This document shows positions 2,156 to 16,871 of a DNA stretch of 64,000 nt, piece after piece. The stretch is taken from the NCBI GenBank assembly GCA_965228735.1, contig OZ245838.1:768001-832000 (forward strand), in the 5' to 3' direction. The DNA is from Planctomycetota bacterium. GTDB lineage: Bacteria; Planctomycetota; UBA1135; UBA2386. Both the position numbers and the translations under genes were made by a program. How positions within the stretch are numbered: position 1 is the stretch's first letter; every line of letters begins with the position of its first letter. The notes beneath the pieces were generated by a model. The model was not told where the DNA came from, made no database searches, and saw nothing but the letters and a program-made list of their open reading frames with translations.

Positions 2156-4849
2156 ATGTTCGATCGCTTCATCAGGCTGGCACGGGCTCGCAAGGCCCTG
2201 CAAGAAAAACGCTTCGAGGATGCTCTGCAGCTCGCGGACGATCCGCTGATCGCAGGCACCCGGCGCGCCGAGACGATTCGCGACAAGGCTCGGGCCGCGC
2301 TGCTCACCCGCGCGCGCGAGCGGCTGGCTCAGGGTGAGATTCCGGCGGCGCGGAAGCTCGCCGAACGGCTGCGGCAGGCCGGCGCGGATGCCGGCGTGCA
2401 GACGCTGATCGGCGATCTCGACGCGGCCGAGTCGCGCGACCAGGAGGTCTCGACCGAGGCCCGGAAGGTCGCGGAAGAGGCCCGCAAGCTGCTGCAGCGC
2501 GGCGAGCTCGCGGCGGCGGCGGCGGCCGTGGCGGGGATGCCCGAGGGTGGTCCGGCCGGATTGCAGAGGCAGCTCGAGGCGCAGGTCCAGGAGAGCAAGC
2601 TTCAAGCCAAGGAGCAGCTCGATCACGTCGCGCGCCATCTCGCGCAGACGCGGGTCGACGAGGCGCAGAAGGCGTTCGCCAAGGCGGCGGCGCTCGATCG
2701 CGATGCAGCTGCGAACGCGACCGTGCGCGGCCGGTTGTTCGACGCGCTCGCCGACGGTGCGGGCGGCCGGATCCGCGAGCAGATCGAGCGCGGTGACCTG
2801 CTCGCGGCGTGCGCTGCGGTGCGGGCCGTTCGTGGGCAGGCGGCGACGTTCGAGATCGGGCAGGCGGTGGGCGACGTGCGCGCGCTGAAGAAGCCGCTCA
2901 GCGGTCTCGAGTCCGCGTTGGTCGCCGAGTGGCGGCGCGCGACGGACATCACGGCCGCCGCGGAGCTTGCCGAGGCGGCGCACGAGGCCGGGCTCGAACT
3001 GCCCGCGGCGACGGCGGAGCTGGTGGCCGCGCTGCGCACGGTCCACGCGGCCGGCGCGGGCGATCCGGAACTGCTGCAGAAGCTGCGCGACGTCGCGCGG
3101 ACTGCTGGGTGCAAGTCGCTCGGCAAGGCCGTCGACGGCAAGCTGCTGCGCCTCGACGATCAGGATCAGCGCGTCACGGCAGCCCGTGAGCTCATGGCGC
3201 AGGGCGATCTCGACGCTGCGCGCGAACGGCTGACCGCGGTCCTCGCGGACGACCCGCTGCACGAAGCGGCCCGGCGCGAGCTCGACCTCGTCGAGCAGGG
3301 CATCGGTTCTCTGAGCGAGCAGCTCACGGCGGCCCGCACGGCGGCCCGTGAGGGCCGGCTGCGCGCGGCGTGCAGCCAGGCGCTCGCGCTCGGCACGGCG
3401 GGGCGACTCGGCAACGAGGCGCAGCTGCTGCTGACCGACGTGCGCGCGCGCATGGCGCTGGTCGATCGCGGCCTCGACGAGGTGCGGACGACGCTGCACG
3501 GCAAGGCGGCCGGCAGTCTGCAGGGCGTGCGTCACTGTCTCGCGCGGCTCGAGGAGCTGCGCAAGGTGCAGTGCGATCACGACGAGCTCGATCGCGTCGT
3601 GCTGGCCATCGAGACCGAGATCCAGGGCCTCGAGGCCTGCGATCGCGCGGCCGCCGCGCTGGCCGATGACGATCTCGTGACCGCGGCAGCGAGCCTGTCC
3701 GAGGTGCTCGGTTCGCGCCGCGATCTGCTCGTTCCCGAGCGGCTCGACGCGCGCGTGCTCACGCTCGCCGATCGCTTCCACGCGCACGGCGAACGCGCGC
3801 TCGCGGCCGGCCGCGGCGGCGATCTCGAACGGTGCGCGGCCGTGCTCGACGGCCTCGCCGCCGTGAAGTCCGACTTCGGCGAGACCGCCGCGCACTGGCG
3901 TCGCGACGCCGAACGGCGCAAGCAGGCGGCGGACGACAAGGCCGCGGCGGCGCGCGCCGCGATCGCGGAGCGCGACCTCGCGACGGCCGAGCAGTGCCTC
4001 GAGGAGGCAACTGAACTGTGGGCCGACTGCGCCGCCGTGCGCACGCTGCGGGGCGAGCTCGCGGGGCACCAGCGGCGCCACGACGAGCTCGAACAGGTCG
4101 AGGCGCTGGCCGCCGAGGCGGACTACCAGGGCGCGGCCGAGAAGCTCGCGGCCATGCCGCCGACGCCGGCGCTGCTGCGGACGAGGATCTTCGACATGAA
4201 GCAGCAGCTCGCGCGGGCGCAGGGCCTCGAGGGCGCGTTCCTCATGCGCGTCGACGAAGGCGGTGAACATCTCGTCGTGCGCGGCGAGAGCATCTCGATC
4301 GGCAACGTGCGCCAGAACCGCGCGGACCTGCCCGTGCTCGCGAACGTCGCGGGGCGGCATGCGACGATTCGTCGCAGCATGTCGTTCCACGGCGGCATGG
4401 AGGACACCGTCGTCGCCGAGGATGGCGAGGTGCGCGTGCGCGGCCGCCGCGTGCAAAAGCACAAGCTGCAGGACGGCGACACGATCCAGTTCGGTCCGTC
4501 GCTCGCCGCGAGCTACCGGCAGCCGACCGAGCGGTCGCTGACCGCCGGCCTCGTGCTCCAGGGCGGGTTCCAGATCGCCGGCACCGAGCGCGTGCTGCTG
4601 ATGAAGGACCGCGGCAAGGACGGCCGCATCCTGGTGGGCCCCGGCCGCGACGTGCACGTGCGCGTCACCGGCGCCTCGCACGAGGTCGAGCTGTTCGCCG
4701 CGAGCACGGGCCAGATCCGCGTGCACTGTCCGGCCGGCGGCACGATCGACGGCTCGCCGTTCAAGGGCGAGCACCCGGTCGACGCCGGCCAGGTCGTGAC
4801 CGCGGGTGGCGTAACGTTCGTGCTCCTGCCCTGGCGCCCGTCGCCGTAG
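2156..4849 (+). CDS. Alpha-helical (TPR-like) repeat protein with C-terminal tandem FHA-like domains
   Basis: About 690 aa of Ala/Leu/Glu/Arg helical repeats, then beta-rich ISIGN...VAGRHATIRR...LQDGDTIQFG; GC3-rich codon usage. Confidence 0.75.
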   Translation: MFDRFIRLARARKALQEKRFEDALQLADDPLIAGTRRAETIRDKARAALLTRARERLAQGEIPAARKLAERLRQAGADAGVQTLIGDLDAAESRDQEVSTEARKVAEEARKLLQRGELAAAAAAVAGMPEGGPAGLQRQLEAQVQESKLQAKEQLDHVARHLAQTRVDEAQKAFAKAAALDRDAAANATVRGRLFDALADGAGGRIREQIERGDLLAACAAVRAVRGQAATFEIGQAVGDVRALKKPLSGLESALVAEWRRATDITAAAELAEAAHEAGLELPAATAELVAALRTVHAAGAGDPELLQKLRDVARTAGCKSLGKAVDGKLLRLDDQDQRVTAARELMAQGDLDAARERLTAVLADDPLHEAARRELDLVEQGIGSLSEQLTAARTAAREGRLRAACSQALALGTAGRLGNEAQLLLTDVRARMALVDRGLDEVRTTLHGKAAGSLQGVRHCLARLEELRKVQCDHDELDRVVLAIETEIQGLEACDRAAAALADDDLVTAAASLSEVLGSRRDLLVPERLDARVLTLADRFHAHGERALAAGRGGDLERCAAVLDGLAAVKSDFGETAAHWRRDAERRKQAADDKAAAARAAIAERDLATAEQCLEEATELWADCAAVRTLRGELAGHQRRHDELEQVEALAAEADYQGAAEKLAAMPPTPALLRTRIFDMKQQLARAQGLEGAFLMRVDEGGEHLVVRGESISIGNVRQNRADLPVLANVAGRHATIRRSMSFHGGMEDTVVAEDGEVRVRGRRVQKHKLQDGDTIQFGPSLAASYRQPTERSLTAGLVLQGGFQIAGTERVLLMKDRGKDGRILVGPGRDVHVRVTGASHEVELFAASTGQIRVHCPAGGTIDGSPFKGEHPVDAGQVVTAGGVTFVLLPWRPSP

Positions 4850-4974
4850 CCGGGCTCTGGCACGCGAACGCGGGATCCACACCCAACCCAGCACCCGGTC
4901 CTGGCGGGCAGATTACGGTATAGCGGAAAATAGAATGCGGGGAGAGGGAACAAGGGTTGGCCCCGACTTTCCTT

Positions 4975-4999
4975 CGAATAGTCGCCCGTCGAGCCCGTA
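4975..4999 (+). promoter_or_regulatory. Putative ECF promoter CGAATA-N15-CGTA
   Basis: Motif shared with two other upstream regions of this locus; followed by the SD AGGAGG and ATG 5021. Confidence 0.55.
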
Positions 5000-5020
5000 T
5001 GCGGCGACAGGAGGTCCCCG

Positions 5021-5641
5021 ATGTTCGCAGTCCTCACAGCCGCCACACTCTGCTTCGCCCCGCAAGGCCCCGCCGACGACTTCGGCGCGTCCGATTCCGC
5101 CCGTTCGGAATCCGTTGCGGTCGCCGCCACCGCCGTCGCGGTGCAGGGCGAGACCGAGCTCACGCCGGCCGAGGCCTACGCGTCGGCGTCCCGCGCGGCG
5201 TCCGCGCACGTCCGCGAACGCTGGAACGAGCGGGCCAATCGGGCGGCCGAACTGCGCCGGCCGTTCTGGCTGCCGCAGATCCTGGTCGACGAGCACGTGC
5301 GGCGCTGGCTCGCGGATCTGCCGATCGAGCGCCTCGCGCAGGTCGTCGATCGCGACGACAAGAAGCGCATCCACGAGTTCGGCAACAGCTACCAGACGAC
5401 CTTGTGGGTGGCCGAAGAGCCGCGTCGGGTCGCGCAGGGCGAAGAACGGCTGCAGCGCACGCTGCGCCGGCTCGAGCGGACCACGGCCTACAAGTACGGC
5501 GGCATCGTCGCGGGTTGGGCCCTGCTCGCGTTCGTCGTGAACTGGCTGGATCGGCTCTCGCGCGGCTACATGACCGGGCGGTTGCGGTGCATCGGTCTGC
5601 TCTGTGGCGCCGCGTTCCCGGCCGCGCTGTTTCTCGTGTAA
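5021..5641 (+). CDS. Hypothetical membrane protein (N-terminal signal-like segment, two C-terminal TM segments)
   Basis: Strong SD AGGAGG; hydrophobic GGIVAGWALLAFVVNWL and CIGLLCGAAFPAALFLV. Confidence 0.75.
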   Translation: MFAVLTAATLCFAPQGPADDFGASDSARSESVAVAATAVAVQGETELTPAEAYASASRAASAHVRERWNERANRAAELRRPFWLPQILVDEHVRRWLADLPIERLAQVVDRDDKKRIHEFGNSYQTTLWVAEEPRRVAQGEERLQRTLRRLERTTAYKYGGIVAGWALLAFVVNWLDRLSRGYMTGRLRCIGLLCGAAFPAALFLV

Positions 5642-5665
5642 CCTACTGCAACCCCGAAGGACCCC

Positions 5666-7078
5666 ATGGAGGCACCTCGCATCGACTCCGAAGGCCAGGC
5701 CGACGCGCCCGACCGCGTCGACTGGGAAGCCTTCTACCAGAGCTACCGCAAGCCGGGCTACGTGCCCGGCTTCGAGATCATCCACAAGCTGGGTGGCGGG
5801 ATGTTCGGCCTCGTCTTCAAGGCGCGGAAGGAGTCGATCGGCAAGGACTACGCGATCAAGTTCCTGAAGGTCGACGACGAGACCGTGCGCGATGCGGTCG
5901 CGCGCGAGCTCGACACGGTGCGGTTCTTCGCCCAGATCGACCACCCCAACCTCGTGTCGATCGAGGACAAGGGCATCGTCGACGGCATCCCGTTCCTCGT
6001 GATGAGCTACGCCGGGCAGGAGACGCTGCAGAAGCGCCTGCAGGCCGGGGGCCAGCCGGGCGAGCGCCTGCCCCGCGAGGAAGCGCTGCGGATCTTCGCG
6101 CAGGCCGCGCGCGGCGTGCAGGCGCTGCACGAGCATTCGCTCGTCCACTTCGATCTCAAGCCGGCCAACATCTTCCTGAAGGGCGACGTCGCGCGCGTTG
6201 GTGACTACGGGCTCAGCAAGCTCGTCAGCGAGTCGCGCAACTCGCTGAGCTTCAGCCGCGGCACGCCGTACTACATGGCGCCGGAGATGCTGCAGCGGCG
6301 CGGCGACAGCAAGAGCGACATCTATTCGCTCGGCGTCATCCTCTACGAGTGCCTCTACGGCGACGTGCCGTTCCGCGGGGATTCGGAGTGGGAGGTGCTG
6401 CGCAAGCACGAGACGGCGCAGCCCGAGTTCCCGGCCGATGCGATCGCGGGCGACCGCGAGATCGTGCTGCGCTGCATGGCGAAGGACCCGGCCGATCGGT
6501 TCGACTCGGTGGCCGAACTGCTGCGCGCGCTGCAGGCGCCCGTCGCGCTCGGTGAGAGCCTGGTGTTCGATCGTCGTCCGGCGCCGCCAGCTTCCGCCCC
6601 AGCGCCGTCCGCAAACGGGCAGCGCCCGGCGGTCCGGCCGCTCGGTGCGCCGCCGGCGCGCCCGTTCCCGACGCCGCCGCCGTTGCCGCGGCCGGACGCG
6701 ATGCCGGTGCCGCCGCCGCCGCCGCCAGTTGGCGATGCCGAGAACGTGGCTCTTGCCGGGCCGGGTGCCCTGCCCGCCGGCCAACGCGACCCCGCCGACA
6801 GCCCCTACGGCATGCCGTGGCGCGAAGAGCCGCGCAAGAGCGGTGGCCCGGTCGGGCTGCTCGTGCGCGGGATGTTCGGGCTGATCGACCTCGTCATCGC
6901 GCTCGTGATGCTGCCCGTGCGGGTGGTGAGCTGGTTCGCCAGCCGCGGCGTCGGGATGCTCGTTCGCCTGCCGGGCCGCGTGCTCGCGGTCGCGGCCCAG
7001 CTCATCGGGCTGCTCGTGGTCGCGGGGCTCGCGCTGCTCGTCGTGGTCACGGTGCTGCAACTGCTCGGAGCGGTCTGA
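5666..7078 (+). CDS. Hanks-type Ser/Thr protein kinase, non-RD, with Pro-rich linker and C-terminal membrane anchor
   Basis: LGGGMFGLV, YAIK, HFDLKPAN, DYG, GTPYYMAPE, DIYSLG. Confidence 0.95.
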   Translation: MEAPRIDSEGQADAPDRVDWEAFYQSYRKPGYVPGFEIIHKLGGGMFGLVFKARKESIGKDYAIKFLKVDDETVRDAVARELDTVRFFAQIDHPNLVSIEDKGIVDGIPFLVMSYAGQETLQKRLQAGGQPGERLPREEALRIFAQAARGVQALHEHSLVHFDLKPANIFLKGDVARVGDYGLSKLVSESRNSLSFSRGTPYYMAPEMLQRRGDSKSDIYSLGVILYECLYGDVPFRGDSEWEVLRKHETAQPEFPADAIAGDREIVLRCMAKDPADRFDSVAELLRALQAPVALGESLVFDRRPAPPASAPAPSANGQRPAVRPLGAPPARPFPTPPPLPRPDAMPVPPPPPPVGDAENVALAGPGALPAGQRDPADSPYGMPWREEPRKSGGPVGLLVRGMFGLIDLVIALVMLPVRVVSWFASRGVGMLVRLPGRVLAVAAQLIGLLVVAGLALLVVVTVLQLLGAV

Positions 7079-7169
7079 CCCGCGCTGCTGGCCCGATCGG
7101 CGGTGCGCAGCCGGCCCCGGATTCGGGCCGCGCGAACTGCCCCGGGCCGCTATCCTGCTACCTCCCGCG

Positions 7170-7838
7170 ATGAGCGATCGATCCTTCGACATGGACCGCC
7201 TGCAGGCGATGGACGAGGCCGCCTGGTCCGAGCTGCAGGGTGAGTACTACCGGCGCATCTACTTCTACGTGAAGCGCTTCGTCACGGACCACCAGACGGC
7301 CGAGGACCTCACGCAGGACGTCTTCCTCGGCGCGGTGCGGGGCATCGGCGGATTCGACCCGAGCTACTCGCTGGACCAGTTCCTGTTCGGCATCGCGAAG
7401 AACCGGGTCATCGATCATTACCGCAAGCACAAGATCGCGCTGATCCCGAGCAAGGCCGATGGTGACGGCAGCGGCGGGGATTCGGACCGCAGCCAGATCT
7501 GGCTCGAGAACATGCCCAACGAGGCCGCGCCGCAGCCGAAGGAGCGCGTCGTCGAATCCGAGGACGGCGGGCGCCAGCGCAAGGTGCTCGCGACGATCCT
7601 GCGGGACATGGTGTCGGACCTCTGGAGCAACGGCGAGTTCCAGAAGCTCATGGTCCTCGAGTTCCTGTTCGTGCTCGGCGGCCGCAACAAGGACGCCGCG
7701 ACGCGCTTCGGCATCGCGGACGAGAAGCACGTCGCGGGGATCAAGTTCCGGGCCGTGGATCGGCTGCGCGGCCTGGCGCGGCAGCACGACCCGAACCATT
7801 CGCTGTTTCGCGGGCTCTGGCAGCCGGGGGCCCGGTAG
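7170..7838 (+). CDS. ECF RNA polymerase sigma factor
   Basis: Region 2 TAEDLTQDVF...FLFGIAKNRVIDHYRK; HTH-like region 4 NKDAATRFGIADEKHV. Confidence 0.9.
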   Translation: MSDRSFDMDRLQAMDEAAWSELQGEYYRRIYFYVKRFVTDHQTAEDLTQDVFLGAVRGIGGFDPSYSLDQFLFGIAKNRVIDHYRKHKIALIPSKADGDGSGGDSDRSQIWLENMPNEAAPQPKERVVESEDGGRQRKVLATILRDMVSDLWSNGEFQKLMVLEFLFVLGGRNKDAATRFGIADEKHVAGIKFRAVDRLRGLARQHDPNHSLFRGLWQPGAR

Positions 7839-7843
7839 GACCG

Positions 7844-8179
7844 ATGAGCACCGATCCGACGAATCCCGGCAGCGGTGGCGACGGCAGCGAGATCGAGATC
7901 GATCCGCACCTGACGTTCACGGTGGCCTCGGTCTGGCGCGATGAGCGGATCTCGTGCCCGCACCCGCACGTGCTCCAGAGCTACATCCAGGGTGGCCTCG
8001 ACGGGGGTGCGGCCGAGTTCGTGCGCTTCCATCTCGACGAGAGCCAGTGCCCGTACTGCAACGCGATCGTCGAGGACCTGCAGGCCCGGGACAGCGAGGC
8101 CAAGGAGCAGCAGCTCGAGGATCTGAAGGATCGGCTGCTGCGGTCGACGGCCACGGCGCTGCGGAAGGGCCGCGCCTGA
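7844..8179 (+). CDS. Small soluble zinc-finger (zf-HC2/ZAS-like) protein, putative anti-sigma factor
   Basis: CP...HLDESQCPYC motif; directly follows the ECF gene; no TM segment. Confidence 0.75.
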   Translation: MSTDPTNPGSGGDGSEIEIDPHLTFTVASVWRDERISCPHPHVLQSYIQGGLDGGAAEFVRFHLDESQCPYCNAIVEDLQARDSEAKEQQLEDLKDRLLRSTATALRKGRA

Positions 8180-8287
8180 CGGCCAGAACAGCCCGTGGCA
8201 TCGGGCGTTCTGCCCGACCTGGCCCGCCCGATTGGGTCGCAATCCGGGCCGCGATCCGGCTGTCGAGCGCAATTCCTGAGCCGGCGC

Positions 8288-8312
8288 CGAATATCCGGAG
8301 CGGTCGTTCGCA
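8288..8312 (+). promoter_or_regulatory. Putative ECF promoter CGAATA-N15-CGCA
   Basis: Third copy of the motif; 52 nt upstream of ATG 8365. Confidence 0.55.
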
Positions 8313-8364
8313 GAGGGGGGGAGTGGCACCGAGAGCGGTGCCCGACAACCACAGCGAGAACGAC

Positions 8365-9207
8365 ATGATCCGCAAGACTTTCAAGGTGGCGCTTCTGACC
8401 GGTGCGGTGCTCGGCGGGGCAGGATTCCTTTTCTTCGGCACCGCCTTCCCCAGCTACGTCAGCTCGATGGCCACGTCCGTGCGTGAGTCGGTCGCTGGCC
8501 AGATCCCGATCGAACTCGAGATCAAGCGGGCCGAGGGCCTCATCAAGCAGATCGATCCGCAGATCGACAACTGCAAGCGTGACCTCGCCCGTTCGGAGGT
8601 CGAGCTCGAGGATCTGCAGGAGTCGATCCAGGAGCTCGAGGAGCGCGTCGCGGTCGAACAGCGCAAGCTGAAGCGCGGCTACAAGCTGTTGCAGGACGGC
8701 GGCGACATCGAGCTCGCGGCCAACTACGGCGCCCGCCGTCGCGTGACGCTCGACCTGCAGCGCACCAAGGACAGCTACGTCAACAACACCGCGATCCTGA
8801 AGGCCAAGCGCATGCTGGTCACCCGCGAGACGCGCAACGTCGAAGCCGCGAAGGAGAAGCTGATCGCGGTCCGCACGCAGCGCGAGTCGCTGATCGACCA
8901 GATCCGTTCGCTCAAGACCCAGCAGCGCGAGATCGAGACCCTGGCCGCGAACAGCGACCGCTTCGACCTCGACAGCTCGGCGCTGAGCCAGGCCAAGGAA
9001 GTGATCGAGACGGTGCGCAAGCGCCTCGACGTCGCCCAGCGCGTGCTCGAGAACGACATGGCGTTCCACGGTGAAGACCCGGACGCCCCGGTCGTCAGCC
9101 AGCGCGACATGATGTCGGAGCTCGAAGAACTCTTCGCCGCGGAAGCTGCGCCGAACAGCGCGAGCGCGGAGGTCATCGAGATCCCCGCCGAGACGCGCGG
9201 CCGCTGA
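8365..9207 (+). CDS. Membrane-anchored or exported long coiled-coil protein (loosely PspA/IM30-like)
   Basis: MIRKTFK plus a hydrophobic segment, then about 200 aa of heptad-rich helix. Confidence 0.75.
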   Translation: MIRKTFKVALLTGAVLGGAGFLFFGTAFPSYVSSMATSVRESVAGQIPIELEIKRAEGLIKQIDPQIDNCKRDLARSEVELEDLQESIQELEERVAVEQRKLKRGYKLLQDGGDIELAANYGARRRVTLDLQRTKDSYVNNTAILKAKRMLVTRETRNVEAAKEKLIAVRTQRESLIDQIRSLKTQQREIETLAANSDRFDLDSSALSQAKEVIETVRKRLDVAQRVLENDMAFHGEDPDAPVVSQRDMMSELEELFAAEAAPNSASAEVIEIPAETRGR

Positions 9208-9228
9208 GCTCTCGCCAACGGAATCATC

Positions 9229-9306
9229 GCGGCGGCGACCTTCGCTGCCGCACCAACGCCAAACGGCGCGACCGGCTTCGGCCGGGCGCGCCGTTCGGCG
9301 TTCGGT
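9229..9306. terminator. Two hairpins between convergent genes
   Basis: GCGGCGGCGA-cct-TCGCTGCCGC (9229-9251), and a long stem capped by C(UUCG)G (9252-9306). Confidence 0.55.
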
Positions 9307-9324
9307 AGGGGAGGCGAGCGCGAG

Positions 9325-11766
9325 TCAGCGAGCCCGGATCTTCACCGAACCCCGGATGATCGGGGTGATCATCCGGAGCGCGAGGCGGAACGCCTTCGCG
9401 TTGGACTCGGCCTCGTTGGGCAAGCCCTTCGAACGCCCGTTGCGGCGCCGGCGCCCGTTGCGGCGCTTGCCACCGCGGCGGCTGCTGCCACCGCCGAGGA
9501 GGTTCGACAGCGCGTTCGTCGCCGCGGGCTTCACCACGTCGACGATGTGCGGTGCCATGCTCGCGAGCAGGCCGAACGCCTTCTGGGCCACCTCGTCGTC
9601 GATTTCGTCGCCGTCGCCGTCGCCGAAGTCGGCGTCGCCATCCGGGTCGTAGGCGTCGTCGTCATCGTCGCCGACGCCGGCGATCTGCAGGCTCGACAGC
9701 CAGTCGTCCTGGTCGTCGTCGTCCACGACGTCGAAGTCCTTCTTGCGGCGCCGGCGCTTGCCGGCGTTGCCGAGCGCCGCGGTGGCGCCCTGGATGAGCA
9801 GCGGAGCGAGCGCGGCCAGAACGGGCAGCGCCTTCTCGGTGGTCTCGTCGTCGAGTAGTTCGTTGGTCATGTCAGTCTCCTTCATCAGGTTCTGCAACCG
9901 CGCGAGGAGCCGCGTCCACACGTCTCCTTCGCGTCGATTGGTCTCGTGGTCGCCCGCCGTGGGGCGGGCCGTGACGTCGCGCAGCGCGAGGAACGTGCGC
10001 TCCGCGAGCCGGAACGGGCCCGGCGGCTCGTGGATCGTCGGGGTCTGGCGGAACCCGTGATCCGCGAGGGTCGACCGCACGCTCCCCAGCAGGCGCGACG
10101 CGGTCGCGTCCGGACCGTGCTCGTCGATCGCTTCGAGCAGCGCGTAGGTGAACGCGGACAGTCCGCGGGTGCGGGCCGTCGACGCCGACGCGGTCTCGTT
10201 CTCGGAACAGGCGGCGAGCACGAGGCCCTTGAGCGGGGTGTCGCTGAGCTCGTCGGCGGTCGATTTGCTCGCGCCGAAGCGCCGATAGCCCGTGATCTCG
10301 ATGGGTTCGTTGCCGGCCGATCTCTGGTTCGCGTCCGGGTTCGCTTCCGGGGGCGACGTCGCGTCGATCGCCCAGCGCTTCGGCGCCGCGAAGTCGGCCG
10401 TTCCATCGACGCTCCCGAAGACGATCTTGTCCATGCCGCCCGAGAAGCACGAATCGAGCACGGCCGTGAACACGCCGTCCGGCAGCTGCTGGCTGCGCTC
10501 GGCGAGCACGTCGTCGATGTAGAAGCCGTCGCGCAGCACGAGGACCTCGGTCAGCACGCCGTCGATCGGCAGCTGGTGGCCGTGCCCGGAGTAGTAGAAG
10601 ACGGCGCGGTCGTTCTCGGTGAGGCCGTCGAACAGCCACGCGAGTCCGTCCTCGACCGCCGTGAGCGTCGCGTCCTCGTCGGTGATCACGCGGATGTCGT
10701 CCTGCCGGTAGCCGACGCGTTCGAGGTGGGCCTGGAACGCGCGCGCGTCCGCGACGCAGCTGGGCAGGTTGTTGCGCGGGTTGCCGTAGTCGTTGAGCGC
10801 GACGAGCAGCGCGCGCCGTTGACCCGTCGCGCCGTCGGGCAGCGCCTTGTCGTTGCCGAGCAGCGCGGTCCACGTCTGCGGACCGACGATGCCGTCGGCC
10901 TGCAGCCGTTCGGCGCGCTGGAACGCGATCACGGCGCGCTCGGTCTTGCGGCCGAAGATGCCGTCGACGCTGCCCGGCGGGTGGTCGAGATCGGCGAGCC
11001 GGCGCTGCAGTTCGCGGACCTCGGTGCCCGTCGAACCGACCCGCAGCAACGGCCGGGAGCTCGAGCGTCCGGGTGCCGGCTCGGTGGCGGGCGGCGCCGT
11101 CAACGCGCCGTCGCTGTAGCTGTGCCCGAGGACCGCGCGGTCGACGAGCGTGTAGTAGATCGTGTCGGTCGGATGGTCGTCGGCGAGCTCGAGCAGCTCC
11201 TGCCACGCCGTGCCCGTGCGGCCGCCGTGCACGACCTGGCAGCCCGCGGACCACTTGCCGACGCGGCTGCCCGTGCCGGCATCGTGGATGTTGATGCCGA
11301 AGTAGCCGGTCTCGACCGTCTCGCCCGCGCCCTGCTCGTGGTCGCGGTCACCGTCGCGCCAGATCGTGACGGGCCCGGCCTGCACGAGGCCCGGGCGCCC
11401 CTTGTGGAGGCCGGTCTTGTAGCGGTACTGGCCGTCGACGAGATGGGCGCACCCGGCGCTGCGCATCGGGTTGTCGGTCCAGTACTGGCCCGGGTCGACC
11501 GACGCGAGGAACTCGCGCACCCGCTTCCTGCCCGCGGCGTCGCGCCAGATCACCGCGATCGTGTCGTTGTAGCGGTCGGGTGAGTTGCTCACGGGCCGCC
11601 CGTCGCGATAGCCGCGGATGCCGAGCAGGTTGATCGCGCGTCGGCGCGAGTCGAAGCGGCCGATGCGTTCGATGACCGCCTTGTAGCGGCCGTAGAGAGT
11701 CGCCTCGGAGGCGCCGGATCTGCTGAGCCCGGAGTCGTCCCTGGGCCGTGTCGTCGTCTGGGTCAT
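9325..11766 (-). CDS. Multidomain protein: L,D-transpeptidase-like Cys domain + peptidoglycan-binding domain + metacaspase (Peptidase C14) + acidic/amphipathic peptide tail
   Basis: GINIH...WSAGCQV; LRVGSTGTEVRELQRRL...DGIFG...FQ...DGIVGPQTW; RALLVALNDY, LPSCVAD, YYSGHG (His codon 10582-10584), LDSCFSG (Cys codon 10447-10449). Confidence 0.9.
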   Translation of the reverse strand: MTQTTTRPRDDSGLSRSGASEATLYGRYKAVIERIGRFDSRRRAINLLGIRGYRDGRPVSNSPDRYNDTIAVIWRDAAGRKRVREFLASVDPGQYWTDNPMRSAGCAHLVDGQYRYKTGLHKGRPGLVQAGPVTIWRDGDRDHEQGAGETVETGYFGINIHDAGTGSRVGKWSAGCQVVHGGRTGTAWQELLELADDHPTDTIYYTLVDRAVLGHSYSDGALTAPPATEPAPGRSSSRPLLRVGSTGTEVRELQRRLADLDHPPGSVDGIFGRKTERAVIAFQRAERLQADGIVGPQTWTALLGNDKALPDGATGQRRALLVALNDYGNPRNNLPSCVADARAFQAHLERVGYRQDDIRVITDEDATLTAVEDGLAWLFDGLTENDRAVFYYSGHGHQLPIDGVLTEVLVLRDGFYIDDVLAERSQQLPDGVFTAVLDSCFSGGMDKIVFGSVDGTADFAAPKRWAIDATSPPEANPDANQRSAGNEPIEITGYRRFGASKSTADELSDTPLKGLVLAACSENETASASTARTRGLSAFTYALLEAIDEHGPDATASRLLGSVRSTLADHGFRQTPTIHEPPGPFRLAERTFLALRDVTARPTAGDHETNRREGDVWTRLLARLQNLMKETDMTNELLDDETTEKALPVLAALAPLLIQGATAALGNAGKRRRRKKDFDVVDDDDQDDWLSSLQIAGVGDDDDDAYDPDGDADFGDGDGDEIDDEVAQKAFGLLASMAPHIVDVVKPAATNALSNLLGGGSSRRGGKRRNGRRRRNGRSKGLPNEAESNAKAFRLALRMITPIIRGSVKIRAR

Positions 11767-11793
11767 TCTTCGTCCCTCGGTTGGTCAGAGGGA

Positions 11794-11821
11794 CAACGAC
11801 ACGGCGGCGTCAGGTCCGCCA
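11794..11821 (-). promoter_or_regulatory. Putative ECF promoter TGGCGGA-N14-GTCGTTG
   Basis: 14 of 14 conserved bases and identical spacing with 15573-15600; 27 nt upstream of ATG 11766. Confidence 0.65.
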
Positions 11822-11931
11822 AGGGGCCCGCGAATCTCCGGGGAAGCCCGCAAAACCGCGACCGCGCGCCGGGAGTCGGACTCCGGGCGCGCGGTCGCGG
11901 TCATCGGGCAGCGGGGGTGGCGTGCCGACGC

Positions 11932-12720
11932 TCAGGCCTCGGCGTCGTGCTCCATGTGCCGATCCAGGACGTGCTGCAGCGGCAGGTTCATCACGAAGCG
12001 GAAGTGGATCTGGAACTTGGCCGTCAACTTCCGGTCCGGATCGATCTCGCGCATCACCGCGTCGTCTTCGTCGTTGAACAGCTCGTCGAAGACGTTGAAC
12101 GGGCGCCGCCCCGCCCGCACGACGCGCGGCAGCCGCGTGGCCTTCGCGATCTTCGCGCCCTTGCGGGGCGCGAACCGTGGCACGCGGGCTATCCGTGTGC
12201 GGCCGCCATCATCGTCGTCCGCGGGTTCGACCTCGTAGTTGTATTGCACGATCGCGCGACCGCGTTCGTCGTAGGTCACGGTGACGCACGTGTGGTTGCT
12301 GTCGCCGTCGTCGCCGCTCCGGCTCCGACTGCTCTTCTTCGCGGTGCTCGTCTTGCCCTTCTTCGCCGCCTTGCGGGGGCGGACGGCCGGCAGTGCGCCG
12401 AGGTTGTAGATGCCGATGTCGGTATCGAACCGCAGGCCGAAGTTGCCCGTGTTGTACTTCTTCAGCGCCTCCCCGACCGCGTCGTGCACCTTGTCGTTGA
12501 GCGGGTGGAAGCTGGTCGGGTCGATGCGCACACGCGGGTTCCACCACACGGATCCCATGAGGTTGCGAAACGCCGTGGTCTTGCCGCCGCGCAAGCGGCG
12601 GCCTGCGAGCTCGATCACGCGGCAGCGATCGAGGTTGCTCAGCGCGTTGAAGTACGGCATGCACGTGCGTTCGTAGTCGAGCACGAAGCGCAGCTGACAG
12701 TTCTGGAACGACTGGTTCAT
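11932..12720 (-). CDS. Hypothetical protein (262 aa), translationally coupled to the kinase
   Basis: ATGA overlap with the kinase stop, AGGAG SD, protein-like composition from MNQSFQNC. Confidence 0.8.
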   Translation of the reverse strand: MNQSFQNCQLRFVLDYERTCMPYFNALSNLDRCRVIELAGRRLRGGKTTAFRNLMGSVWWNPRVRIDPTSFHPLNDKVHDAVGEALKKYNTGNFGLRFDTDIGIYNLGALPAVRPRKAAKKGKTSTAKKSSRSRSGDDGDSNHTCVTVTYDERGRAIVQYNYEVEPADDDDGGRTRIARVPRFAPRKGAKIAKATRLPRVVRAGRRPFNVFDELFNDEDDAVMREIDPDRKLTAKFQIHFRFVMNLPLQHVLDRHMEHDAEA

Positions 12721-14909
12721 CGGTTCTCCTTCTGGGTGGACGAGGGGTCGGTGGAGCCGGGCTTCGCCGCGGTGGCGGTGCGCGGTGGCGCCGGCGTGAG
12801 GCTCTTGGCGCAGCGCAACCCGAGATCGCCGGTGGCGTCGAAGGTCGGGCTGCTCCGGGGGAACCCGAACATGAAGAGCTTCTCGGCGGAGACGGCCCAG
12901 GAACCACCGGTCGCGAGCCTCCCCGTCCGCGAAGCGACTTTGAACTCCGACGGATCGGCGAGCCACTCCCGCACGTTGCCGAACGGCTGCAGGATGCCGC
13001 GCTCCGCGTAGGTGCCCGCGCGATCCGCGGGCACGGCGTGCCGCACGAAGTGGCTCACCTCCTGATCGCTGCCGCGCCCCAGCACGAACGGTGTCGTCGC
13101 ACCGTCGGTGAGATGGTCCTCGAGCCAGGTCTCGGCGCGTCCCATGGCCAGGTCCCATTCGACCGCCGTGGGCAGTCGCTTGCCGACCCACTCGGCGTAC
13201 TCGCGGGCCTCGCGCCATTCGACGAACACCATCGGGAGTTCGTCCCAGTCGGCGCGCGGCGGCTCGTCCCAGATCTTCTGCAGCCCAGAGATGGTCCAAC
13301 TGCTCGGCCGTTCCCGGCCGACGGCCTGCAGGAACGTCCGGTATTGCCCGATCGTGACCGGCGCCCGGTCGATGAGGAACGGTCGGCAGTCCTGCATTGC
13401 CGAACTCAGCTGGGTGCCGGACGGCGTTCCGACGAGGTTCCACATCTCGAGGGCGCCGCCGTCGACGCGCACCATCTCCGACTCGACTTCGGCAACCGTC
13501 GCGAAGCGCACGTGAGCGAGATCGATCGCCGACTCGTCCGCCCGTCGCCGGAGCTCCGCGAACGCCCCGCGCTCGTCGACGAGCACGATGCGGGCCTCGC
13601 CGGACCGCATGTCGAAGGTCCGCTCGTTGCGCTCGACGGTCGCGCGTTCCGGTGGCGCCCAACCCGCCGCGGCGCCGAGCCACGGACTCACCGTCACAGC
13701 GAGCGACTGGGTGCCGGACACGGTGACGGCGCGATCGGCGTCCTCGGCCGCCGCGGTTTCGCCGCCGGCGAACGCCGCGAACCCGGCCAGGGCGAGCAGT
13801 GCTCCGGCGAGCGCCGCGAGCGTCACCGCGCGGCGGCCGGCGAAGCGCTGCAGCCGATACCAGAGGCTCGGCGGGCGGGCCGCGACCGTCGCGCCGGCGA
13901 GGTACCGCTCGAGGTCACGCTGCAGTTCGGCGGCGCTGGCGTAGCGGTCGTCGCGATCGCGACGCAGCGCCTTCAGGGTGACGAGCTCGAGGTCGCGCGG
14001 CACGTTGTCGCGCAGTCGCCGCAGCGGTCGCGCATCCTCGTGCGTGATGCGATGCAGGATCTCCTCGACGCTCGCGCCGGGGAACGGCGGCTCACCCGTG
14101 AGCAGCTCGTGCAGCACGGCGCCCGCGGAATACACGTCGGTGCGCGCGTCGACCGGTTCACGTTCGGCGCGCACCTGCTCGGGGGACATGTAGAGCGGCG
14201 TGCCCGCGCTGTGCCCGGACCGACTGATCGCGTCGAGGTGCAGGACCTTGGCGAGCCCGAAGTCGATCACGTGCGGCCGATGGTCGCGATCGACGAGGAT
14301 GTTCTGCGGCTTGATGTCGCGATGCAGCACACCGCGTTCGTGGCTGTAGGCGAGTGCCTCGGCGACGTCGCGCATCAGCCGCGCACAGACCACCGGGTCG
14401 CCGAAGTCCGGTCCACCGGCGACGGCACCGTCCATGAGCTGGCGCAGATTCCAGCCCGCGACGAGCTGCATCGCGTAGTAGAAGAGGCCGTTGGCCTGCC
14501 CGAACGCGAGCACGGGCACGATGCGCGGATGCACCAGTCGCGACGCCGCGAGCGCCTCGCGCTTGAAGCGCTCGGTCGCGAGCGGATCGCTGGGCACGCG
14601 CGGGTCGAAGACCTTGACCGCGACCGGCCGGTCGAGCTCGAGCTGCGTCGCGCGATACACGACGCCCATGCCGCCGCGGCCGATGAGCTCGTGCAGCTCG
14701 AAGTCGCCGAGGCGGGTGCCGGCGAGCGACGGCGGCGGGGCGTCGAGGTCGGTGAGGAAACCGGCGGTCTGGGCGGCGCACAACCGCGCGACCTCGGCGG
14801 CGAGTTCGCGATCGGGCTCGCCTGCCAGAAGGGCATCGCGTTCAGACCCGGGCAGGTCCGCGACGCGGTCGAACAAGGCCTCGACCTTAGCCCAGCGTTC
14901 GGCGTTCAA
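12717..14909 (-). CDS. Ser/Thr protein kinase with TM segment and C-terminal FGE-sulfatase (SUMF1)-like domain
   Basis: IGRGGMGVVY, VAVK, HRDIKPQN, DFGLA, GTPLYMSPEQ; C-terminal KRLPTAVEW, GNVREW, GGSW, GLRC; TTG start after AGGAG. Confidence 0.93.
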   Translation of the reverse strand: MNAERWAKVEALFDRVADLPGSERDALLAGEPDRELAAEVARLCAAQTAGFLTDLDAPPPSLAGTRLGDFELHELIGRGGMGVVYRATQLELDRPVAVKVFDPRVPSDPLATERFKREALAASRLVHPRIVPVLAFGQANGLFYYAMQLVAGWNLRQLMDGAVAGGPDFGDPVVCARLMRDVAEALAYSHERGVLHRDIKPQNILVDRDHRPHVIDFGLAKVLHLDAISRSGHSAGTPLYMSPEQVRAEREPVDARTDVYSAGAVLHELLTGEPPFPGASVEEILHRITHEDARPLRRLRDNVPRDLELVTLKALRRDRDDRYASAAELQRDLERYLAGATVAARPPSLWYRLQRFAGRRAVTLAALAGALLALAGFAAFAGGETAAAEDADRAVTVSGTQSLAVTVSPWLGAAAGWAPPERATVERNERTFDMRSGEARIVLVDERGAFAELRRRADESAIDLAHVRFATVAEVESEMVRVDGGALEMWNLVGTPSGTQLSSAMQDCRPFLIDRAPVTIGQYRTFLQAVGRERPSSWTISGLQKIWDEPPRADWDELPMVFVEWREAREYAEWVGKRLPTAVEWDLAMGRAETWLEDHLTDGATTPFVLGRGSDQEVSHFVRHAVPADRAGTYAERGILQPFGNVREWLADPSEFKVASRTGRLATGGSWAVSAEKLFMFGFPRSSPTFDATGDLGLRCAKSLTPAPPRTATAAKPGSTDPSSTQKENR

Positions 14910-14913
14910 CGGT

Positions 14914-15522
14914 TCACTCCTGGTCCTCCCCGAGCTCGGCGGCGAGCCAGGCGCGCGCCGCCGTCCACTTCCGTTCGAAGGTCCGCTTGCTCAGCCCCAG
15001 GGCATCGGCGGCTTCCGCCACGCTCGCGCCGCCGAAGAACCGCAGCTCGACCGCGCGTGACATCTCGGCGTTGAACGTCTGCAGCCGTTCGAGCGCGTCG
15101 TCGAGCGCGACGAGGTCGCCGCTGCGCAGCTCGGCGGCAGCCGCGATACCGTCGAGCGCGACCCGCTTCGCGCCGCCGCCGCGCTTGTCCCGGAGCTTGC
15201 CGCGCGCGTGATCGACGAGCACCTGCCGCATCGCGTGAGCCGCGACATTGAGGAAGTGGGCGCGGTCCGCGAAGCGCGAGTCGTCGGTGGCCGCGACCTT
15301 GAGCCACACCTCGTTGAGCAGGGCGGTCGCCTGCAGCGTGTGCCCCTCCGGCTGGGCGGCCATGTTCCGCCGCGCGAGCGCGTGCAGTTCGCGATGCAGC
15401 CAGATGGCCAGGCGCTCGCGCGCTTCGGCATCGCCGTGCTGCGATCGCCGGATCCAGTGCGTGATCGTTCCGTCGCCGGGCTCCGGCGTCGTTCCCGCGG
15501 ATGACTCTGAGGGCATTGGCAT
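14914..15522 (-). CDS. ECF sigma factor, TIGR02999/ECF43-like
   Basis: GHTLQATALLNEVWLK, AAHAMRQVLVDHAR, KRGGG, VELRFFGG, ARAWL; start could be 15516. Confidence 0.92.
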   Translation of the reverse strand: MPMPSESSAGTTPEPGDGTITHWIRRSQHGDAEARERLAIWLHRELHALARRNMAAQPEGHTLQATALLNEVWLKVAATDDSRFADRAHFLNVAAHAMRQVLVDHARGKLRDKRGGGAKRVALDGIAAAAELRSGDLVALDDALERLQTFNAEMSRAVELRFFGGASVAEAADALGLSKRTFERKWTAARAWLAAELGEDQE

Positions 15523-15572
15523 GGTCCTGGTGGTGGCGGCGCCACCGCTCCGGGCCCGCGCGTCGACCTCTC

Positions 15573-15600
15573 CAACGACGAATCGCCGCGCGTTCCGCCA
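15573..15600 (-). promoter_or_regulatory. Putative autoregulatory ECF promoter TGGCGGA-N14-GTCGTTG
   Basis: Matches 11794-11821; 50 nt upstream of the sigma start. Confidence 0.65.
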
Positions 15601-15710
15601 TGATACGCGACAACCGGCTCCGGCGGCGCCGGGGGGGTGTGGAATCACGAAATCACGCCGCCGAGGAGGTTGGATTCGGCTCCCCGCGGTCGCTAGCCTC
15701 CTTCGCCCGA

Positions 15711-16871
15711 ATGAACATCCACGAGTATCAGGCCAAGCAGGTCTTGGCGGAGTTCGGCGTGCCGGTCTCGCGGGGGATCCCGTGCCAGACCCCCGACGAG
15801 GTCGCCAAGGCGTTCACGGAGCTCGACGAGCCCCTCGCGGTCGTCAAGGCCCAGATCCACGCTGGCGGTCGCGGCAAGGCCGGCGGCGTCAAGCTGGTGA
15901 AGAGCGCCGACGAGGCGAAGTCGGTGGCCGAGGGGCTGTTCGGCAAGGCGCTCGTCACGCACCAGACCGGCCCCGAGGGCCGCGTCGTGCACACGATCTA
16001 CGTCGAGTCCGGCAGCGACATCGATCGCGAGATGTATCTCGCGGTGCTCATGGACCGCGCCGCCGAAGCGCCCGTCGTGATCGCGGCGGCCGAGGGTGGC
16101 GTCGACATCGAAGAGCTCGCGGAGACCAACCCCGAGGCGATCGCGCGTCACCGCGTGCACCCGGTCAAGGGACTCATGCCGTTCCAGGCGCGGGCGATCT
16201 GCAAGCACCTCGGACTGTCGGGTGATCAGGCCAAGCAGGGCGGCAAGCTCATCACGGCGCTCGTCAAGGCCTTCATGGCGAAGGACTGCTCGCTCGCCGA
16301 GATCAACCCGTTGATCACGACCAAGCAGGGCGAGGTCAAGGCGCTCGATGCCAAGATGGGCTTCGACGACAACGCGCTGTTCCGGCACCAGGACATCGTC
16401 GAGCTGCGCGATCTCAACGAGGAGGATCCGAAGGAGGTCGAGGCCAAGAAGTTCGACCTCAGCTACATCGCGCTGACGGGCAACATCGGCTGCCTCGTCA
16501 ACGGCGCGGGCCTCGCGATGGCGACCATGGACGTCGTGCAGCAGAAGGGCGGCATGCCGGCCAACTTCCTCGACGTCGGCGGCGGCGCCAGCGCGGAGCA
16601 GGTGACCAACGCGTTCAAGATCCTGCTCAGCGACGAGAACGTGAAGGGCATCCTCGTCAACATCTTCGGCGGGATCATGAAGTGTGACACGATCGCCGAG
16701 GGCGTGATCACCGCGGCCAAGGAGGTCAACCTCTCGGTGCCGCTCGTCGTGCGCCTCGAGGGCACCAACGTCGAGCTCGGCCGCAAGCTGCTCGACGAGT
16801 CCGGGATCGATCTCAAGACCGCGTCGTCACTCGACGAGGCGGCCGAGGCGATCGTCGCGGCCATCCAGTAA
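15711..16871 (+). CDS. sucC: Succinyl-CoA synthetase beta subunit
   Basis: [45 protein letters not shown]. Confidence 0.98.

Follow-up and report, generated by a model that had tools for sequence, protein, structure and literature searches.

Among the extracytoplasmic function (ECF) sigma factors, those of group ECF43 carry a QTTA-type motif with a conserved threonine in place of the DAED motif and are encoded next to a kinase, and in two members, EcfP of Vibrio parahaemolyticus (with the kinase PknT) and EcfK of Xanthomonas citri (with PknS), that threonine is phosphorylated by the adjacent kinase (PMC13147305, PMC8999054). EcfP governs polymyxin resistance and EcfK a type VI secretion system used against amoebae, and in EcfK other sites count too (PMC8999054, PMC13147305). 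The autoregulatory ECF promoters described by Todor et al. (PMC7776599) are bipartite with a fixed spacer and lie 5' of the gene of their own sigma factor, one residue of the sigma-4 domain setting one base of the -35 element. A locus that resembles both systems occurs in a window of 64,000 nucleotides (nt) of DNA from a Planctomycetota bacterium (contig OZ245838.1, positions 768,001 to 832,000 of the forward strand; assembly GCA_965228735.1), where two copies of a bipartite motif, TGGCGGA-N14-GTCGTTG, stand 5' of a gene for an ECF43-type sigma factor and of a gene for a polyprotein that combines a YkuD-fold domain, a metacaspase domain and a repetitive tail. The motif is very probably, as judged from the comparison of related loci, the cognate -35/-10 promoter of the adjacent sigma factor. 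The fuller reading, that activation of the sigma factor by its kinase, promoter recognition and self-processing of the polyprotein are jointly and broadly right, is given a probability of roughly 0.6. The regulatory features concerned are:

15573..15600, minus strand: putative promoter copy A, TGGCGGA-N14-GTCGTTG, 50 nt 5' of the sigma ATG (15522), kept in the related loci L001 and L125
11794..11821, minus strand: putative promoter copy B, TGGCGGA-N14-GTCGTTG, 27 nt 5' of the polyprotein ATG (11766)
14914..15522, minus strand: ECF43-type sigma factor of 202 amino acids (aa), TIGR02999 190 bits against a cut-off of 126, PF07638 157 bits
14965..14991, minus strand: sigma-4 recognition helix SKRTFERKW (aa 178-186), in which Glu183 covaries with base 5 of the -35 box
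12717..14909, minus strand: Hanks Ser/Thr kinase (aa 70-324) with a hydrophobic segment (about aa 361-382) and an FGE-sulfatase-like domain (aa 477-702), from Pfam and hydropathy

The sigma factor belongs, like EcfP and EcfK, to TIGR02999/PF07638 and has a threonine motif in place of DAED (PMC13147305, PMC8999054); in its region 2.2 this motif reads QATA, and Thr66 is invariant in 16 of 16 aligned relatives. The kinase gene starts 4 nt after the sigma stop codon, its catalytic motifs are invariant in 14 relatives, and domain scans found no anti-sigma gene beside the pair, in keeping with the ECF43 pairs, in which a Hanks kinase with one membrane segment is encoded at +1 and no anti-sigma gene is seen (PMC7826278 supplement). 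By analogy with EcfP and EcfK it is quite likely that the sigma factor is activated by the adjacent membrane kinase through phosphorylation of Thr66. The locus departs from the ECF43 pairs in its planctomycete host, in the outer domain of the kinase, which is FGE-like where theirs is TPR, and in the promoter, for which the published prediction is GTC (-35) and CAG (-10) whereas the conserved core found here is TGGC[GC]-N17-[TC]CGTT (PMC7826278 supplement). Since neither the TPR sensor nor the GTC/CAG promoter was found, the sigma factor is called ECF43-type and is not placed in the published group. The apparent target differs as well, being a protease polyprotein here and type VI secretion or polymyxin-resistance genes in the EcfP and EcfK systems (PMC13147305, PMC8999054).

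The original prediction had described two minus-strand motif copies with identical boxes and unrelated spacers of equal length, lying 27 and 50 nt before start codons, and all of this is borne out: the boxes agree at 14 of 14 bases, and the two 14-nt spacers match at 5 of 14 positions, which is near chance at 70% GC. The whole genome (7,193,928 bases) holds 2 exact matches, both just 5' of genes of the sigma/polyprotein locus; the same two 7-mers at 60 other spacer lengths (0 to 60) occur 10 times genome-wide, and 0 of 100 dinucleotide shuffles of the window contain the motif. In a look-elsewhere control, in which any shared 7-N(12-18)-7 word between pairs of 100-nt upstream regions was counted, 184 of 200,000 random pairs (about 1e-3 per pair) and 46 of 19,088 neighbouring pairs shared a word. 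Within the window alone the motif pair is suggestive and not decisive; it is the comparative data that settle the matter. About one chance match to the relaxed consensus is expected per genome; the third relaxed match in the window genome lies antisense within a gene, as does an extra one in genome G452, and the single exact copy of the 14-bp motif in genome G717 is inside a coding sequence and may have arisen by chance. Matches with at most one mismatch number 41 in the window genome, and one other of these is intergenic and close to a start codon (G000:C1:5751318-5751345, plus strand, one mismatch, 47 nt 5' of a lipoprotein-like gene), which leaves it as the sole additional candidate target there. 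A scan for sigma-70 promoters over 9000-16000 found none. Contigs assembled from public runs show no differences from the locus, one of them, possibly the source of this DNA, spanning 9200-15738 with 0 other letters; a contig covering 9405-10037, in the tail, was deeper in two runs and was not used, contig depth being unable to rank parts of a gene and the contig having loose ends in one run.

A single orthologous locus with the same gene order was found, L001, which comes from the same family of Planctomycetota (genome G417) and differs in having an unrelated middle gene (sigma factor 53%, kinase 41% and polyprotein 56% against the window). It has a matching motif at both positions with changed spacers, TGGCGGA-N14-ATCGTTT 5' of the sigma gene and TGGCGGG-N14-CTCGTTT 5' of the polyprotein gene, and the assembly, 73% complete, contains no other match to the relaxed consensus. 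A motif is also kept 5' of the orthologous sigma gene in L161. Three of the seven full-length polyprotein relatives could be placed in genomes (L001, L002 and L003), which with the window makes four of eight; the contig of L003 ends before the 5' end of the polyprotein gene, and the one exact motif match in its genome lies within coding sequence.

Two blind tests extended the comparison to 339 genomes of the order. The first was a search with the sigma-4 helix alone, which reads SKRTFER[KR]W in the window and L001, and it returned four new sigma factors (L125, L126, L127 and L128); the exact 14-bp motif lies 22 nt 5' of the sigma ATG in L125, and L128 has a degenerate form of it with unchanged spacing. 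At L127 (1486-5859) other genes lie between the sigma gene, with its window-type helix, and its FGE kinase, and a divergent gene there, by appearance that of a LodA-type oxidase, is preceded by a weak motif with a spacing one base short. In the second test modules were gathered by the C-terminal half of the kinase, relatives of which occur in 88 of the 339 genomes; 40 regions around high-scoring new hits were taken, 21 of them holding a sigma gene. The strict core precedes 10 of 27 FGE-kinase ECF43-type sigma genes overall and 5 of the 21 found blind, against 0 of 37 other ECF43-type sigma genes and 27 of 4776 genes at large (0.6%), an enrichment with a binomial p of 1e-7 and a Fisher p of 0.004, related sequences not being independent. 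The core was found with a spacer of 17 in 9 of 28 cases, with 18 in one and with nine other lengths in none. At 11 bits or more, a leave-one-out position weight matrix placed a site 5' of 17 of 27 FGE-kinase sigma genes; among the controls 1 of 37 reached that score, and among background regions 25 of 600. The conserved part is TGGC[GC]-N17-[TC]CGTT; further out, both boxes differ from one relative to another. A second match in genome G524 (L205:1501-2200) precedes a degenerate ECF43-like open reading frame without the QxTA motif, possibly part of a sigma cascade or a decaying paralogue.

The sigma factor and the motif also covary. When 20 sites were located without the use of box positions 5-7, one pair of positions stood out, helix position 6 and box base 5, where Glu goes with G in 6 of 6 cases and Arg with C in 6 of 6; the Arg/C rows are scattered on the tree, with five changes for six rows. 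Helix position 6 aligns with the K of GTVKSR in SigL, which is the position of Arg171 in RpoE. Mutagenesis has established that the residue at that position of RpoE sets base -31 (PMC7776599). Transcription is predicted to start at about 15563-15568 from copy A and about 11784-11789 from copy B, or near 15565 and 11786 if base 5 is -31. The window genome encodes 17 TIGR02999-like sigma factors, and a search with up to 2 mismatches 5' of the 16 paralogues found no motif; one paralogous module (L129, with its sigma gene at G000 2288807-2289409) has an Arg helix and its own variant, TGGCCGG-N14-GCCGTTC, with 3 mismatches, and since Arg is there paired with TGGCCGG the two modules would be insulated from each other. 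The promoter assignment of the original prediction is accordingly upheld on three counts: retention of both sites in L001, blind enrichment at one spacer length and sigma-4 covariation. Neither the window motif nor the Glu/G versus Arg/C switch in FGE-kinase sigma factors was found in the available part of Todor et al. (PMC7776599). No mapped ECF43 promoter of this kind was found in the literature searched, and surveys of planctomycete ECF factors and the datasets of PMC7776599 may bear on its novelty.

The second gene with the motif encodes a protein of composite build:

9325..11766, minus strand: polyprotein of 813 aa, with 7 full-length relatives 54-66% identical over aa 1-620
11128..11709, minus strand: YkuD-fold domain (L,D-transpeptidase/carboxypeptidase), aa 20-213, His161 and Cys176 invariant
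10861..11031, minus strand: PG_binding_1 domain, aa 246-302, PF01471 with E 3.8e-22
9991..10818, minus strand: Peptidase C14 metacaspase domain, PF00656, His395/Cys440 dyad
9868..9882, minus strand: AAGGAG, a Shine-Dalgarno-like word, and an in-frame ATG (Met633) at the head of the tail
9328..9870, minus strand: tail of three units, each with an acidic leader, a Lys (645, 729, 791), a hydrophobic or amphipathic Pro-containing segment and a basic end

Hydropathy gives no sign of a hydrophobic signal peptide at the N-terminus, and a search of 401 genomes across the phylum, a stricter first look whose result is a floor, found no further full-length polyprotein. On its structure model (mean pLDDT, the predicted local distance difference test score, of 68) the N-terminal domain is a YkuD fold: the top 20 VIA-align rows are all YkuD-type (best Z 9.3, root-mean-square deviation 3.9, 126 aligned), Foldseek matched 8qzg (E 1.9e-3), and the closest folds are the cell-shape L,D-carboxypeptidases Pgp2, Bd1075 and Csd6. 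The catalytic spacing is His-x(14)-Cys, and the phage families phrog_3000 (1e-38) and the endolysin phrog_33083 (1.3e-12) match the domain; there was no Pfam match at E up to 1 and no informative sequence match in the PDB. Similar domains occur in other fusions, for example in P0014 (1083 aa), where a HET-C-like domain (PF07217) comes first, and the planctomycete genome G321 has two of them (L090 and L096). The metacaspase domain resembles AtMC9, Yca1 and TbMCA2 (peptidase C14) in fold, His/Cys dyad and acidic S1 residues; its nearest structures are plant, fungal and trypanosome metacaspases, its CxxD, SGHG and DSC motifs align with those of the plant and yeast enzymes, and Cys337, Asp340, Ser393 and Asp438 are invariant among relatives together with His395 and Cys440. 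The invariant acidic residues presumably form an S1 pocket for Arg or Lys. The motif L.SC..D is present in 140 of 150 caspase relatives. The model for EACC1-type caspases (NF047832) gave 42 bits against a cut-off of 140. Eight YkuD-fused forms make up one clade inside the caspase family (FastTree support 0.98).

A profile of 15 caspase domains recovered 662 representatives at E up to 1e-30, and the tails of the best 150 were analysed; exclusion of 4 incomplete domains and of 29 tails shorter than 60 aa left 117 of at least 60 aa. At least one hydrophobic 18-mer core preceded by Lys is present in 93 of these 117 tails and at least two in 71, and in the same set cores preceded by [D/E/Q]K number 212 against a mean of 20 and a maximum of 29 in shuffles. 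Pro occurs in 278 of 288 Lys-preceded cores, another Lys follows at a median of 23.5 aa, and 288 of 1291 Lys residues stand directly before a core, against 62 of 1057 Arg residues (91 of 334 against 15 of 361 in a smaller set). The cores diverge fast while the cleavage frame is kept. Metacaspases cleave after Arg or Lys (PMC3501461), and with Lys standing before the cores self-processing is predicted; it is somewhat favoured, on this pattern in the sequences, that the metacaspase cuts its own tail after Lys and frees repeated peptides. The combination of metacaspase and repeat tail is also found in Sorangium, Alphaproteobacteria, Microlunatus, Gemmatimonadota, Melainabacteria, Vulcanimicrobiota and Verrucomicrobia, and in two Kofleriaceae loci (L022 and L023) the tail is a separate gene right after the protease gene. 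These separate genes (L022:1738 onwards and L023:9486-10082) have two Lys-preceded hydrophobic cores each and a small C-terminal part, beta-rich-looking, without a Pfam match. Pfam has no family for the tails, and an Atlas search with the tail of one relative gave no usable match; the core of one relative reaches the cut-off of PF08018, a frog antimicrobial peptide family (21.3 against 21.2 bits), which may be convergence. Similar hydrophobic repeats lie in Gln/Tyr/Pro-rich tails with few Lys in P0126, P0172, P0188, P0195 and P0201, which suggests another cleavage rule or a structural role there, and the cyanobacterial L018 and L020 belong to the same caspase subfamily and have a non-repetitive helical tail. 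By eye, the caspase-tail genes of L014, L010, L016 and L023 are often beside varied regulators (LuxR-like, response regulator, divergent ECF with kinase, kinase).

A survey of prokaryotic caspase homologues listed 11 peptidoglycan-binding and 4 amidase fusions; neither a YkuD-fold N-domain nor a repeated Lys-flanked hydrophobic tail was found in the available part of it (PMC3501461). Fungal multicore precursors such as Candida Ece1 and an Ustilago polyprotein likewise hold several amphipathic peptides between basic sites, a likeness for which no homology is claimed; they have a signal peptide and are cut at KR by separate kexins, whereas the window protein has its protease in-chain, predicted cleavage at a single Lys after D/E/Q and no signal peptide (PMC12153327). 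As in the EACC1, Pepco and bacterial gasdermin modules, a caspase-like protease is linked to a latent, possibly membrane-acting substrate, but in those modules the effectors are folded single proteins beside sensor-fused proteases, and here the substrate is a tandem peptide array under apparently transcriptional control (PMC12642450). None of these effector families was found among the scanned neighbours. In the available literature on metacaspase and caspase precursors, repeats and multicore peptides no description of the repeat-tail family was found.

Three further features belong to the locus:

11932..12720, minus strand: orphan gene of 262 aa whose start overlaps the kinase stop (ATGA), a variable slot with an unrelated gene in L001
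11851..11902, minus strand: GC hairpin followed by UUUU, terminator-like, -60.5 kcal/mol, z -7.5, 29 nt 5' of copy B
9253..9305, no strand assigned: hairpin after the polyprotein stop, between convergent genes, z -4.2 for 9215-9320

The sigma, kinase and orphan genes are tightly coupled, by a 4-nt gap and then an ATGA overlap, and the terminator-like hairpin upstream of copy B, which a terminator scan did not list, would explain why the polyprotein gene has a promoter of its own. In the scheme proposed, which for its first step draws on EcfP and EcfK, an envelope signal would act on the FGE-like outer domain, and the activated kinase would phosphorylate Thr66 of QATA and allow the sigma factor to bind RNA polymerase. 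Sigma-4 would then read TGGCG, Glu183 picking G at base 5, and sigma-2 would read TCGTT 17 nt downstream, a step for which the evidence is comparative; copy A would provide positive feedback on the sigma, kinase and orphan genes, and copy B would restart transcription past the hairpin. Predicted cuts by the metacaspase fall behind the Lys of [D/E/Q]K sites and at the basic end of each unit, and they would release amphipathic peptides of 20-30 aa and free the YkuD-fold and peptidoglycan-binding part. Least certain is the last step, in which the products would act on the membranes or cell walls of competitors, predators or the cell itself; exit by lysis or vesicles is proposed because the polyprotein has no signal peptide. 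That the tail peptides are membrane-active is a tentative suggestion. Equally tentative is the view of the whole as a kinase-switched sigma factor, of a kind employed against predators and membrane attack, inducing a one-gene weapon, in which a self-processing metacaspase would yield a peptidoglycan enzyme and membrane-active peptides and which would belong to an undescribed cross-phylum class of multicore precursors with a caspase-family protease as maturation enzyme.

A number of results count against this scheme. On the side of the recognition code, the Glu/G rows come mainly from a single clade, with L189 in addition; L128 shares the window helix, yet its site reads TGGCGCC; L126, with the same helix and no adjacent kinase, has no clear site; and the degenerate sigma gene of G524, with Arg in the helix and G at the base, is a possible exception. 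No good site was found 5' of 7 of the 27 FGE-kinase sigma genes, including L127 and L196 of the window's own clade, and when the matrix was trained in the same way on the controls, 9 of 37 scored at least 11 bits, so that sites of 11-13 bits can be overfitted. The hairpin at 11851-11902 is not kept in L001 (z -1.3). The original prediction had held that the motif ties the polyprotein to the signalling module, and this stands in two of the three genomes with a readable 5' end and falls in L002 (genome G716), where the polyprotein is present but there is no sigma or kinase gene upstream and no exact motif in the genome, so that the motif-polyprotein link is lineage-specific. Of 20 loci checked, L001 alone has the strict core 5' of its caspase gene, and no exporter, immunity or other gene was seen by eye to be conserved beside the caspase genes of 16 loci; control of the polyprotein by the sigma factor therefore looks like a local capture. 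As regards processing, 24 of the 117 tails have no Lys core by the rule used, 29 of the 150 relatives are without a tail, and the repeat profile was defined after the sequences had been viewed.

Of the other explanations, the one that survives best accepts the promoter and holds that the tail peptides are surface-active or structural, forming a hydrophobic coat, a biofilm component or a surfactant, while the YkuD domain serves to remodel the peptidoglycan of the cell itself during envelope stress. Many cores are indeed hydrophobic with little net charge, the amphipathic peptides of an Ustilago maydis polyprotein act as hydrophobins (PMC12153327), the closest YkuD folds belong to cell-shape enzymes, no immunity gene is seen beside the caspase genes and EcfP controls envelope (polymyxin) resistance (PMC8999054). 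This explanation is nevertheless unlikely, given a polyprotein without a signal peptide for the periplasm, an N-domain that matches phage families including an endolysin, a core that scores as PF08018 and cores that diverge fast while the cleavage frame stays. It is less likely still that the tail is not cut into products, its helices being membrane-binding or autoinhibitory, or the tail being translated separately, and that the caspase has other substrates. AAGGAG with Met633 is a possible internal start, or a fossil of gene fusion: a Shine-Dalgarno-like word precedes the linker ATG in 14 of 17 fused loci, and such words stand before 14 of the 39 Met codons in linkers, compared with 7 of 107 Met codons elsewhere and 6.9% genome-wide. 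Some tails also have no Lys core, and the structure model of the tail has pLDDT below 50. Set against this are the Lys, rarely Arg, found directly before the cores with D/E/Q preceding it, as for a protease site, and the linkage of tail and protease even as separate genes. Recognition of the motif by another ECF factor or a DNA-binding protein, or an origin of copy B by chance or as a leftover, so that the sigma factor does not control the polyprotein, could draw on the 17 TIGR02999-like sigma factors, the chance matches (about one relaxed match per genome, and a full one in G717) and the absence of autoregulation in about half of ECF factors (PMC7776599), but is very unlikely when two genomes keep both copies at orthologous places despite changed spacers and middle gene, base 5 covaries with the helix of this very sigma family and the paralogous module of the genome pairs its Arg helix with a matching variant site of its own.

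The remainder of the module is more variable. The orphan has no Pfam or NCBIfam match, its sole hit among 5.8 billion proteins of similar length (the lengths searched) being itself, and its Atlas hits are at 0.84 or lower; nor did it match the cargo family that related modules have in common. After an FGE-kinase module there usually comes a small gene (about 120-200 aa) that evolves fast, and then a conserved family of about 300-450 aa, of which 19 members were collected, with no Pfam match in the 3 scanned; such loci are G000:C1:2284794-2289409 (L129), L125, L128, L162, L163, L166, L168, L173, L176, L178, L179, L181, L184, L186, L189, L193, L196, L197 and L199. This family seems to be the usual cargo of FGE modules, the window having the orphan and the polyprotein in its place. 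On the plus strand a second, convergent signalling cluster (2156-9207) encodes an FHA/TPR-like protein, a Ser/Thr kinase, an ECF factor with only sigma-2 recognisable, a small Cys/His protein, which may be a zinc anti-sigma factor, and a coiled-coil protein.

The promoter adds one more example to known biology, and the surprise lies in the polyprotein as its target. It also offers a testable recognition sequence, together with a rule from residue to base, for kinase-linked sigma factors of a clade that is widespread in planctomycetes. Bacterial caspase homologues are mostly without known substrates, and a large subfamily here appears to carry its substrate in-chain with a readable cleavage pattern. 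If this is confirmed, a new way in which bacteria make ribosomal peptides would be defined, and substrates of bacterial metacaspases would become directly testable with one purified protein.

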